Origin: a virus
Lineage: Duplodnaviria > Heunggongvirae > Uroviricota > Caudoviricetes
Virus record (IMG/VR): IMGVR_UViG_2529292726_000026
Length of the DNA: 3,346 nucleotides
Strand: one strand, 5' to 3'
Shown: piece by piece, positions 615-3,346 of the stretch
How positions within the stretch are numbered: the stretch's first letter is position 1
Layout: each line of letters opens with the position of its first letter
The notes under the pieces: generated by a model
The model's input: the letters and a program-made list of their open reading frames with translations, nothing else
Told to the model about the DNA's origin: nothing
Databases searched by the model: none
Program-made: the position numbers and the translations under genes

Positions 615-2354
615 GTGCAGCAAGAACCAGTATTGACGGCGAAAAATAGCCAGAATGCAGCAGCCGAAAGCGAGAGCGCGTCAGCCGGTTCTGCGACTGC
701 AGCAGCTGGATCAGCAACTGCTGCGGCTAACAGCCAGAAAGCAGCGAAGACGAGCGAAACTAACGCAAAGTCCAGCCAGACGGCAGCGAAGACCAGCGAA
801 ACAAATGCCAAAGCCAGCGAAACTGCGGCGAAAAGCAGTCAGGATGCAGCAGCCGAAAGCGAGAGTGCTGCAGCTGGTTCTGCAAGTGCGGCGGCTGCTT
901 CTGCCACTGCATCAGCAAACAGTCAAAAAGCTGCAAAAACCAGTGAAACCAATGCAAAGACAAGCGAGACTGCAGCGGCGAACTCGGCGCAAGCATCGGC
1001 AGCAAGCCAGACAGCAGCTAAAGCAAGTGAGGATGCAGCCAGAGAGTATGCAAGCCAGGCAGCAGAGCCGTATAAATATGTCTTACAGCCACTGCCTGAT
1101 GTGTGGATACCGTTTAACGATTCACTGGATATGCTTGCTGGCTTTTCGCCTGGTTATAAGCAAATAACTGTAGGTGATGATGTTATTAAAATGCCATCCG
1201 ATAAGGTTGTTAGCTTCAAACGCGCATCAGGTGCAACATACATTAATAAATCAGGTGTATTAACCGTTGCTGAAGTTGACGAACCGCGATTTGAACGAGA
1301 AGGTTTGCTGATTGAAGGACAGAGAACAAACTATTTCAGAAATTCAAATACACCAGAAGCATGGAATAACACGGGTAGTGTGTCTGTTGAGTCGTTCGAC
1401 AGTGATAAGGGGTTTAACTATGGAAGGATAACTGTTATTAATGAAAATCCGACAGCACAAGGATATCAGGCAATTGCTGTAAACACGAATGATGCTTACA
1501 CCTGCCCGGCAGGTTCTTATACGACGATATCGTGTCTGACGAAAAGTGATAATTCCCGGTGTCGTGCAAGGTTCGGAAAAATGTCTGATAATGGTGCGTT
1601 TGTTTTTCATTCAGATGCAGCTCTGGATCCTGTTACGGGAAATGTTGTTCATGGAAATAATGTGACGGTGACGGCAGAAAGAGTCGGTGAATGGTGGTTG
1701 TTTACCGCCACTCTTTTTGCAGATGCGGAAATGATAATCAGCTCAAGATTTGAAATCCTGGCGATGCCTGGAATCAGTATTATCCCCAATGGCTCTACGT
1801 TAGATATTGCGATGCCTCAGGCGGAGATTGGGTCGTACAGGACGTCATTTATCATTACTGAAGGGGCTCCTGGCACTCGCTCCAGCGACATGGTGACAAT
1901 ACCTGTAAGAAACAATATTCACCGATTACCATTCAGTGCTCTTGTTGAAGTTAATAAAAACTGGGATATCCCTCCCAGCAAATCACCATTAATCTTTAAT
2001 GTTAAAGATTATCAGGAAAATGGTCTGTTCACGCATGGATTCCGTGGTAATAATTTCTCTGATGCCGGTTCTCCTTTTATTTCTATGGGAGGGTGTAATA
2101 AATATGTGGCAACAACCCAGAGGAAAATCATTTCAGGCTTCCGTTGTGGCGCTGATGGAGATGTTCAGGCCGTATGTAATGGTGAATTATCTGTTGCGGC
2201 AAAAACAACATGGACTTCAATTGTTCCACGGGCAGTATTGCGAATTGGAGGGCAGGGCACTAATGGGGAGTATCATCTTTTTGGTCATATCCGTAATCTG
2301 CGTATCTGGCATAAAGAATTAACTGATGCGCAAATGGGGGAGAGTATTAAATGA
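615..2354 (+). CDS. Side tail fibre protein, C-terminal fragment (fibre repeats, then distal receptor-binding region with LamG/ConA-like C-terminus); start codon uncertain
   Basis: Seen: frame 3 is open from upstream of 615 to TGA 2352-2354. Translation from about 640 continues the same repeat family as the first fragment (AKNSQNAAAESES...NSQKAAKTSETNAK). No ATG or convincing Shine-Dalgarno precedes it; GTG 615 is simply the first possible start, 2 nt after the upstream stop. The C-terminal residues (...GEYHLFGHIRNLRIWHKELTDAQMGESIK) resemble the terminal strand motif of LamG/concanavalin-A-like lectin domains (recalled motif, not searched). Confidence 0.7.
   Translation: MQQEPVLTAKNSQNAAAESESASAGSATAAAGSATAAANSQKAAKTSETNAKSSQTAAKTSETNAKASETAAKSSQDAAAESESAAAGSASAAAASATASANSQKAAKTSETNAKTSETAAANSAQASAASQTAAKASEDAAREYASQAAEPYKYVLQPLPDVWIPFNDSLDMLAGFSPGYKQITVGDDVIKMPSDKVVSFKRASGATYINKSGVLTVAEVDEPRFEREGLLIEGQRTNYFRNSNTPEAWNNTGSVSVESFDSDKGFNYGRITVINENPTAQGYQAIAVNTNDAYTCPAGSYTTISCLTKSDNSRCRARFGKMSDNGAFVFHSDAALDPVTGNVVHGNNVTVTAERVGEWWLFTATLFADAEMIISSRFEILAMPGISIIPNGSTLDIAMPQAEIGSYRTSFIITEGAPGTRSSDMVTIPVRNNIHRLPFSALVEVNKNWDIPPSKSPLIFNVKDYQENGLFTHGFRGNNFSDAGSPFISMGGCNKYVATTQRKIISGFRCGADGDVQAVCNGELSVAAKTTWTSIVPRAVLRIGGQGTNGEYHLFGHIRNLRIWHKELTDAQMGESIK
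747..802 (+). repeat. 56-bp direct repeat, copy 2 (55/56 identical to 553-608)
   Basis: Seen: aagacgagcgaaactaacgcaaagtccagccagacggcagcgaagaccagcgaaac. Read in frame 3 it encodes the same peptide as copy 1. Confidence 0.9.
2336..2344 (+). promoter_or_regulatory. Shine-Dalgarno (GGGGGAGAG) for ORF 2351-2632, inside the 3' end of the fibre gene
   Basis: Seen: purine-rich GGAG core at 2339-2342, 8 nt before ATG 2351; the stop and start overlap (ATGA). Confidence 0.6.
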
Positions 2355-2641: not shown

Positions 2642-3346
2642 ATGGCTACATCGACAGTAATTCCAGGAGATATCACCACGCTAAAGGGAGATGTCAGTAA
2701 AACTAAGGAAGATATTTCCTCAATTAACGGAAAAGTATCAACGCTTCAGACTGATATGACCAGTGCAAAGCAGGATATCAGCACCAGATACACAAAAACT
2801 GAAGTTGATAATAAGCTGAAAAACAAACTGGAAGTGAATGCTCTGGAAAGCGGTAATTATGGTGGAGATTTTTACCCGCTGACTGGCCGTGAAGCATTTT
2901 ATTTATGGAATTTGGGCACGACTACAGCGGCGGCAAACCTTTATCTTAATCCTGACCCTGCAATTTCGTCTGTACTGCGGTCAACATCGTCTATTCGCTA
3001 TAAACATTCAGTAGAGACGATAGATTCAGAGCACGCCGATCTCATTTTCAGGATGCGCCCTGTGTGGTACAGGTCGCAATGCGAAAATGACAGGCGTGAC
3101 TGGGGATTCTATGGATTGATTGCCGAGGAAGTAGGAGAAATTGCCCCTCAGTTTGTTCACTGGCGACCAGCTAACGAAGATGATGCACCGGAAACCATTT
3201 CCAGCAATGGCCTTGTTGCCGAAGGTGTAATGTACGAACGTCTGGTTGTTCCACTGATTCACCATATCCAGAAACTGACTGAAAGAGTTGATGAACTTGA
3301 GTCAGAATTAAAGTTGTTATTAACTTCCCGAAGCGATATTAGATAA
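2642..3346 (+). CDS. Tail fibre domain-containing protein with C-terminal peptidase S74 intramolecular chaperone domain (234 aa)
   Basis: Seen: ATG 2642 preceded by GAGGGAGA (2631-2638), which overlaps the upstream stop; open to TAA 3344-3346. The N-terminal ~65 aa are heptad-like and polar (GDITTLKGDVSKTKEDISSINGKVSTLQTDMTSAKQDIS...). The C-terminal ~110 aa (SSIRYKHSVETIDSEHADLIFRMRPVWYRS...GFYGLIAEEVGEIAPQFVH...NGLVAEGVMYERLVVPLIHHIQKLTERVDELESEL) follow the recalled S74 / endosialidase-chaperone pattern, including a Ser-x4-Lys dyad at S116 and K121. Confidence 0.85.
   Translation: MATSTVIPGDITTLKGDVSKTKEDISSINGKVSTLQTDMTSAKQDISTRYTKTEVDNKLKNKLEVNALESGNYGGDFYPLTGREAFYLWNLGTTTAAANLYLNPDPAISSVLRSTSSIRYKHSVETIDSEHADLIFRMRPVWYRSQCENDRRDWGFYGLIAEEVGEIAPQFVHWRPANEDDAPETISSNGLVAEGVMYERLVVPLIHHIQKLTERVDELESELKLLLTSRSDIR
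2987..3316 (+). other. Peptidase S74 (intramolecular chaperone, auto-cleaving) domain within CDS 2642-3346; putative catalytic Ser codon 2987-2989, Lys codon 3002-3004
   Basis: Motif-level comparison to endosialidase C-terminal chaperone domains (catalytic Ser-Lys dyad in an SDRRLK-like context; here SSIRYK), followed by a GLIAQEV-like segment (here GLIAEEVGEIAPQFV) and a C-terminal helix. Domain boundaries are approximate. Confidence 0.7.

Follow-up and report, generated by a model that had tools for sequence, protein, structure and literature searches.

A lambda-type stem and a portable distal cassette probably meet at a compositional step in the side-tail-fibre gene of an Escherichia coli lambdoid prophage

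The 3,346-nucleotide (nt) stretch of DNA analysed here in its entirety (the window; IMG/VR record IMGVR_UViG_2529292726_000026, Caudoviricetes) is the side-tail-fibre locus of a lambdoid prophage of Escherichia coli, and our subject is the fall in guanine-plus-cytosine (GC) content within its fibre gene, stf. The window matches exactly positions 109-3454 of contig APXK01000151.1 from the E. coli draft assembly GCA_000356245.1, and full-length copies of about 99% identity are found in 111 of 5,426 complete E. coli genomes. The source contig begins 108 nt upstream of the window, and the gene order 5' of stf was therefore read from homologues. In a complete homologous locus (L001) the lambdoid tail module runs L, K, I, J, lom, a fibre gene of 782 amino acids (aa), a 93-aa open reading frame (ORF), a 234-aa "tail fiber domain" protein and a 95-aa ORF, and the same L-K-I-J-lom-stf order, which is the position of a lambda Stf-type fibre, is present in the phages PhiR49_1 and 2G7b. 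Within the window the ORF list gives the fibre gene at 1-2354, ORF3 at 2351-2632 and ORF4 at 2642-3346, all on the plus strand, as are the other coding features described below.

The fibre gene is interrupted. A premature TAA (610-612) closes its 5' fragment (1-612), which encodes the attachment domain at the N-terminus (aa 3-132) together with the initial repeats of the shaft. The remaining shaft, a junction box and the distal module are carried by a 3' ORF (615-2354) that aligns collinearly with the intact homologue's aa 205-782. The proximal part is of the lambda Stf type, as had been proposed from the sequence: the attachment domain of the intact homologue matches the Pfam family PF08400 (phage_tail_N) with an E-value of 1.9e-66 at aa 3-132, and the proximal DNA is 93-96% identical to stf of lambdoid phages. 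An Ala/Ser/Thr-rich shaft delineated by repeat finding and Tandem Repeats Finder occupies 340-1067, with a GC of 0.56-0.58 and a GC at second codon positions (GC2) of 0.66-0.70. Its units of 21 and 42 nt encode SETNAK-type repeats of 7 and 14 aa and build up three super-repeats of about 190 nt (443-594, 637-788 and 826-977) that are 67-78% identical. The length of the shaft varies in relatives, whose proteins span 677-812 aa, and this variation suggests unequal crossing-over.

The composition of the gene changes where this shaft ends. The original prediction had counted GC by hand in three 60-nt samples as about 58, 38 and 32%, and recomputation returned 0.583 (361-420), 0.383 (1141-1200) and 0.317 (1981-2040). 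A single-change-point likelihood scan placed the best break after base 1070 (2-log-likelihood support 1017-1154), with a GC of 0.552 to its left and 0.427 to its right; the log-likelihood ratio (LLR) is 22.9, whereas 200 shuffles averaged 2.5 and never exceeded 7.2. As predicted, the Ala/Ser/Thr repeats end at this break (...ASQAAE/PYKYVLQPLPDVWIPFND...). The change points of total GC (1070) and GC2 (about 1064) both lie within the compositional junction, a feature without strand, that had been placed at 1040-1100. Codon-position GC was computed on the intact homologue, where the GC2 change point follows codon 353; this shift is an amino-acid effect, reflecting the passage from the Ala-rich shaft to globular sequence. 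At third codon positions (GC3) the change point follows codon 279 (about window position 842, support about 782-893), where GC3 drops from 0.53 to 0.35 with an LLR of 12.4 against a null maximum of 7.1. Codon usage and GC, whose profiles had been suggested as a check, both shift along the gene.

The GC3 of the native neighbours is 0.66 in J, 0.62 in lom and 0.57 in the ORF just past the window, and that of the genes from the step onwards is 0.35 in the distal fibre, 0.42 in ORF3 and 0.40 in ORF4; the shift in codon usage spans all three of these and ends past the window. To separate protein composition from codon choice, we computed the GC expected from the amino-acid content if it were written in the codon usage of the prophage's own tail genes. 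Expected GC falls by 8.0 points, from 0.613 in the shaft to 0.533 in the distal part, and observed GC falls by 14.1 points, from 0.568 to 0.427, such that observed minus expected GC is -0.045 in the shaft and -0.106 in the distal part. The step is real and non-random; given the expected step of 8.0 against the observed 14.1 points and the separate GC3 shift, its abruptness at 1040-1100 is therefore mostly due to protein composition, superimposed on a broader shift in codon usage, and its sharpness arises mainly because the Ala-rich shaft gives way to globular domains.

We then compared the window with its relatives, using an identity profile obtained by sliding comparison with six of them. From its first base to about 1137 the window is 95-100% identical to the lambdoid phages 2G7b, PhiR49_1 and PhiR46_1, over 1141-1380 the identity to the same three phages is 66-83%, and 1381-2272 is effectively unalignable at the DNA level with other alleles. 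Two further junctions follow, one at about 2273, where identity to lambdoid alleles resumes, and one near 2690, where it disappears again: 2281-2700, comprising the fibre 3' end, ORF3 and the first 15 or so codons of ORF4, is 90-100% identical to the lambdoid relatives, and after 2700 the remainder of ORF4 is common only to PhiR49_1 and PhiR55_1. MaxChi detected breakpoints at 1134 (against PhiR49_1), 1151 (2G7b) and 953 (PhiR46_1), with chi-square values of 92-197 (at most about 23 under the null); the last of these and the GC3 drop at about 842 both lie within the repeated shaft. Homology to the virulent T5-like phage YJin-2024a (39% GC) starts at 1095, bases 1095-1367 being 86% identical, and over 1201-1320 the window is 91% identical to this phage versus 73-83% to lambdoid phages. 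Homology to the Jouyvirus Lambda_2E9 resumes at 1088.

Relatives that diverge upstream all converge on one short element, the junction box PLPDVWIPFNDSLDM (1089-1133), delimited by DNA and protein alignments, blastn limits and MaxChi. It is near-invariant in 31 aligned proteins, where it stands behind at least six unrelated N-terminal types, namely two PF08400 (lambda Stf-like) types, a T5 type, those of Drexlerviridae and Dhillonvirus, and a prophage "MIYTTGTIA" type. The mean profile of 85 distinct related ORFs shows a GC step at the box, from 0.52-0.61 before it to 0.38-0.47 after it. The analysis as a whole confirms that a module boundary in a tail fibre can be located by a simple compositional signal. 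A scan of IMG/VR for the exact box recovered more than 120 loci, and 116 exact-box loci with complete flanks, drawn from these matches and further loci, were clustered by their flanks. They fell into five upstream and twelve downstream clusters; nine of the downstream clusters occur behind the window's upstream cluster (left cluster 0), and two left clusters occur in front of right cluster 3. A literature search found no paper containing the box motif; this particular box and this allele are not discussed in the searchable literature, while the phenomenon, the architecture of the locus and its variability are already known.

The distal part of the fibre belongs with the two genes behind it. 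The order of fibre, ORF of about 92 aa and second fibre is conserved in EC104, YJin-2024a and IrisVonRoten (Tequintavirus), in SLUR29 (Drexlerviridae) and in lambdoid phages, as was anticipated by the proposal that the three form one cassette. Tequintavirus, Drexlerviridae and lambdoid phages all have a GC of 0.40-0.44 after the box, and before it GC tracks the genome of the phage, ranging from 0.40 to 0.56. The lateral fibres of these siphoviruses are regarded in published work as binders of O-antigen or glycans that have conserved N-termini and highly variable distal parts, and tail-fibre components are subject to frequent horizontal transfer (PMC8594841, PMC11990801).

The allele-specific distal core (1134-2272) was delimited by the identity profile, the homologues and a structure model; 1134-1380 is moderately conserved and 1381-2272 unalignable. 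We found 2,610 homologues of the distal protein, mostly with PF08400 N-termini, in a family that is very abundant in E. coli prophages. Their identities drop from 91-100% directly to 52% or less, and the alleles are therefore discrete. The window's own allele occurs in 115 of the 5,426 complete E. coli genomes, in varied hosts, and the best phage protein matches of its core are in T5-like phages (47-50%). The distal half matches no Pfam family at E<0.01, so its domain assignment relies on NCBIfam, PHROGs and the structure model: phrog_1419 matches the module over its whole length, its profile covering the proximal-plus-distal architecture in full, and the NCBIfam GTA_spike_fiber model matches at aa 435-626. 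An AlphaFold2 (AF2) model of the distal module as a monomer, with a mean predicted local distance difference test (pLDDT) score of 73, shows beta-sandwich domains and is confident at residues 90-260 and 330-390. Its best Foldseek matches in the PDB are the tail fibres of phages Pa193 and E217, pentraxin, CBM40, CBM22, laminin G and BoNT Hc, and two distal homologues contain PF13385 (Laminin_G_3). The first beta-sandwich is the most variable part, with almost no invariant columns at module residues 84-250. The core at 1134-2272 is probably the receptor-binding part of the fibre, and this allele may bind a glycan.

The conserved 3' end of the fibre gene (2273-2354, ...HLFGHIRNLRIWHKELTDAQMGESIK), where DNA identity to other lambdoid alleles resumes, encodes the C-terminal motif RIGGQ..GE.HLFGHIRN.RIWHKELTD, which would be expected of a portable cassette. 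Two oddities were noted in homologues of the distal protein. In one of them (P0007), on a short contig, the post-box segment occurs twice in tandem with different alleles, and the locus looks rearranged or decayed. In another (P0006), on a 3.1-kb contig, a gpJ fragment (PF13550) is joined directly to the distal core at '...ISCLTKSDNSRCR'; the join suggests either that a decayed prophage suffered a deletion or that the assembly is faulty, and we did not use it as a further proximal context.

ORF3 (2351-2632; 93 aa, phrog_1361) is found directly 3' of this fibre type throughout the phage groups examined and is 40-51% identical to its T5-like and 2E9 counterparts. Its ATG overlaps the fibre stop (ATGA, 2351-2354), and the same geometry is annotated in the T5-like and Drexlerviridae counterparts, implying translational coupling of the two genes as judged from their sequence. 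On the grounds of this overlap and its invariable position, we propose that ORF3 may be an assembly factor or adaptor. Its AF2 model, with a pLDDT of 44, is unusable, because the available homologues are too alike (84-98% identical). ORF4 (2642-3346; 234 aa) is a short second fibre by its Pfam and PHROG tail-fibre matches. Behind its N-terminal motif MATSTVIPGDITTLK come a heptad-like stretch and a small tip, and its C-terminal part is an intramolecular chaperone of the Peptidase_S74 family (aa 116-172, about nt 2987-3157; PF13884, 27.2 bits versus a cutoff of 22). It is allelic, being 94-95% identical in amino-acid sequence to its counterparts in PhiR49_1 and PhiR55_1 and unrelated past about aa 32 to those in 2G7b and PhiR46_1. 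Its first 15 or so residues (MATSTVIPGDITTLK, 2642-2690) are kept in the second fibres of Tequintavirus, Drexlerviridae and lambdoid phages (loci L132, L133, L005, L003 and L134). These proteins always start with M(A/V)T.TVIP.DIT.LK, and their remaining sequences are unrelated, with lengths of 227-576 aa. The motif is probably a docking peptide, to go by its conservation, by which ORF4 would dock on the fibre; published work (BASEL 2025) describes the IrisVonRoten counterpart, Gp24, as a receptor-binding protein mounted on a long proximal fibre (PMC8594841, PMC11990801).

Based on the step, the breakpoints, the module boundary, the shared gene order and the constant composition of the cassette, all of which are observed here, we consider it probable that the GC drop marks the boundary between a lambda-type stem and a portable distal cassette of lower GC. 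Recombination at the fibre, which the original prediction had invoked, is shown by the MaxChi breakpoints at 1134, 1151 and 953 and by the joining of one proximal type to nine distal types. That prediction's interpretation of a swapped distal module is supported in each of its elements, with refinements; the boundary is old and family-wide, not a recent event specific to this window, a conclusion that follows from the step in 85 related ORFs and from the presence of the allele in about 115 of 5,426 genomes. Homologues collinear with the whole window at similar identity had been named as grounds against a swap, and the 111 genomes at 99% are formally of that kind, but they carry the same allele and are hence uninformative on an older exchange.

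Several points weigh against this interpretation or limit it. The GC3 change point at about 842 is not at the box but some 220 nt upstream of it. More than half of the GC step stems from amino-acid composition, and the rest is the shift in codon usage. None of the breakpoints against close relatives falls inside 1040-1100, the interval originally proposed for an abrupt junction; they flank it at 953, 1088-1095 and 1134-1151, and of that proposal the change point at 1070 stands, while the sharpness is mainly an amino-acid effect. The exact-box sample is biased towards sequences with identical boxes and towards E. coli prophages. The AF2 model, besides its pLDDT of 73, depicts a monomer of a presumably trimeric fibre and leaves the N-terminal 85 residues disordered. 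Since the fibre gene is interrupted, the locus in this window may be non-functional. Finally, the direction of transfer and the identity of a lower-GC source are both matters that we infer, the direction from composition only. The source itself, also part of the original prediction, is plausible, in that the composition of the cassette matches T5-like or Drexlerviridae phages (post-box GC 0.40-0.44) and that the best phage protein matches (47-50%), as well as the 91% identity over 1201-1320, are to T5-like phages.

We weighed three other explanations. Were the step purely a by-product of protein composition, with GC-rich Ala/Ser/Thr codons giving way to a globular sequence of the same single origin, one would expect the GC2 change point at codon 353, exactly at the junction, and amino acids alone do predict 8.0 of the 14.1 GC points. 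Yet GC3, too, falls from 0.53 to 0.35 (LLR 12.4 versus 7.1), the deficit of observed against expected GC deepens from -0.045 to -0.106, post-box GC is constant across lineages in which pre-box GC varies, and composition has no bearing on the mosaic identity or the MaxChi breakpoints; the GC3 and breakpoint data largely refute this explanation, which we regard as improbable. A recent recombination at 1040-1100 specific to this strain's prophage would explain the sharp change in composition, and comparison with close phages puts breakpoints no more than about 50-120 nt from that interval. It is scarcely credible, as complete E. coli genomes, 111-115 of them and from varied hosts, carry the junction and distal allele at about 99% identity, the step recurs in 85 distinct related ORFs and phrog_1419 already models the full proximal-plus-distal architecture.

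The third explanation reverses the traffic: the cassette would have originated in temperate phages, lambdoid or other, from which T5-like and other virulent phages received it, and selection or mutation bias on receptor-binding genes, in place of a low-GC source, would account for its low GC. Its abundance in E. coli prophages, with 2,610 homologues mostly bearing PF08400 N-termini, is in keeping with such an origin, and the present data give no direction. However, the GC of the cassette fits T5-like and Drexlerviridae genomes (0.38-0.44) and departs from the lambdoid flanks (0.49-0.53), and the closest phage proteins of this allele are in T5-like phages, which leaves a lambdoid origin unlikely. 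Two programmed mechanisms of fibre variation were considered and rejected. For an invertible host-range segment of the Mu G, P1 C or e14 Pin type, there are only three weak inverted repeats of 16-21 nt, and no fibre-like minus-strand ORFs. A 16-nt inverted pair with 94% complementarity (1947-1962 and 3312-3327) lying 1.3 kb apart, has no associated invertase or alternative exon and is probably due to chance. For a diversity-generating retroelement target, the sole direct repeats are those of the shaft, and the window contains no reverse transcriptase.

The preferred reading, that of a lambda-type stem joined to a portable cassette, can be put as follows. The upstream module is lineage-specific, consisting here of the lambda Stf-type attachment domain and the Ala/Ser/Thr shaft, with a composition like that of the rest of the prophage. 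The downstream module begins at the box and comprises the distal fibre domains (beta-sandwich, lectin- or LamG-like), the ORF of about 92 aa and the short S74 second fibre. This cassette circulates among lambdoid, T5-like, Drexlerviridae and Dhillonvirus phages and retains a GC of about 0.40-0.44 wherever it is placed, and the extra shift in codon usage probably reflects its residence in a lower-GC gene pool. Homologous recombination would swap the allele-specific cores, using as patches of homology the conserved box, the repeated shaft, the fibre 3' end with ORF3 and the first 15 or so codons of ORF4; the swapped cores, 1134-2272 and the ORF4 tip, would in turn change the surface structure that is recognised.

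More tentatively, and with somewhat less than even confidence, we posit that the box on one side and the fibre 3' end, ORF3 and the ORF4 N-terminus on the other serve as universal 'sockets' of a three-gene cassette that temperate lambdoid prophages exchange with virulent phages of the T5-like, Drexlerviridae and Dhillonvirus groups. Prophages might then be an allele reservoir for virulent phages, and the reverse, with ORF3 as an uncharacterised assembly factor or adaptor, ORF4 docked as a branch and the box as a general fusion point for Stf chimeras. What the analysis adds is that the boundary is pinned to a short invariant peptide box, which fibres from at least four phage groups of E. coli have in common. 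For host-range engineering this box is a candidate fusion point, and it also helps to annotate the specificity-determining part of such fibres. The significance of the result is modest. The variability of lateral fibres in these phage groups is already described in the BASEL collection papers. That distal fibre modules are exchangeable has been a textbook principle since the 1990s, and the locus is an ordinary, well-supported case of tail-fibre mosaicism.

The fibre was compared with known systems. With lambda Stf it shares the PF08400 attachment domain, the Ala-rich repeated shaft and, in homologous prophages, the position after J and lom. Its distal half, in contrast, is unrelated to the lambda Stf tip, and no tfa gene directly follows it, the 93-aa ORF and the short S74 second fibre standing there instead. 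A lambda/T4 gp37-like tip with Tfa is thus not what we found: the distal matches are to phrog_1419 and GTA_spike_fiber, and only remnants of tfa occur further downstream in relatives. Foreign distal parts fused to the lambda Stf stem have been shown to retarget particles (PMC11338833). The T5-like loci of IrisVonRoten (bas32_0022-0024), EC104 and YJin-2024a share with the window the junction box, the C-terminal motif, the ORF of about 92 aa and a second fibre starting with M(A/V)T.TVIP.DIT.LK and having an S74-type end, and their distal parts are 45-50% identical to it in amino-acid sequence. They differ in having a T5-type instead of a lambda-type attachment domain and a second fibre of 574-576 aa with larger receptor-binding domains, as opposed to the 234 aa of ORF4, and their genomes (38-40% GC) show no GC step, unlike the window.

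The proteins LtfA and LtfB from the T5-like phages DT57C and DT571/2 form a branched lateral fibre of two proteins, the second of which is attached through the first, and host range in these phages is switched by recombination of divergent segments between conserved flanks (PMC4728585, PMC10713586). The fibre system of the window may be branched as well. We rejected LtfA/LtfB as its direct T5-like counterpart, since DT57C LtfA has a C-terminal S74 domain of its own and regions related to phiEco32 gp14, whereas the window's fibre lacks S74 and has a LamG-like motif at its end; the true counterpart is the IrisVonRoten/EC104 type. In the fibres of P2 (H), Mu (S), P1 (S) and T4 (gp37-38), mosaicism takes the form of a conserved stem and an exchangeable distal receptor-binding part, with recombination at conserved linkers. 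The window has the same conserved stem and exchangeable distal part; those systems differ from it in their Tfa/gp38-type chaperones and sometimes invertible segments, the window having neither the inverted repeats of an invertible segment nor an invertase.

The interruption of stf traces to an aberrant patch of 28 nt, AGCGTGCAGCAAGAACCAGTATTGACGG (612-639), which alignment to L001 shows in place of the 23 nt seen in every relative. An A-to-T change at base 610 creates the TAA at 610-612 and, together with the net gain of 5 nt in the patch, which shifts the frame, splits the gene into the ORFs at 1-612 and 615-2354. The reading frame is intact in all relatives examined, L001 having one uninterrupted 782-aa gene after J and lom. 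BLAST against the 5,426 complete E. coli genomes and exact-match scans of IMG/VR and of JGI metagenomes did not find the patch, and the source draft contig is the only place in which it is present among everything searched. Two copies of the approximately 190-nt repeat of the shaft flank it, and that contig ends about 700 nt away. It could be an artefact of assembling the repeated shaft, or else a real lesion that is specific to this strain and inactivates the gene. The stf gene of lambda PaPa likewise carries a frameshift.

Beyond the window, the source contig (L131, 3465-7559) continues with a 97-aa ORF of normal GC (0.53), followed on the opposite strand by sitDCBA-like ABC transporter genes, and the phage Lambda_2E9 (L004) holds the same sitDCBA-like genes in the identical cargo position. 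In a prophage of E. coli strain 510016 (L008), which has the window's distal allele at 100% identity over 1140-2272 in a fibre gene annotated as a pseudogene, the downstream cargo site (5613-7133) is occupied by a reverse-transcriptase-domain gene beside a SLATT-domain pseudogene; the pair is probably a defence system, and this reverse transcriptase is separate downstream cargo. In E. coli O6:H16 M9682-C1, a DLP12-like remnant (L009, 3983-6353) retains only the distal two-thirds of the fibre allele, from about window position 1428, fused behind nohD, followed by ORF3, ORF4, ORF5 and a tfa fragment, and adjoins appY and ompT.

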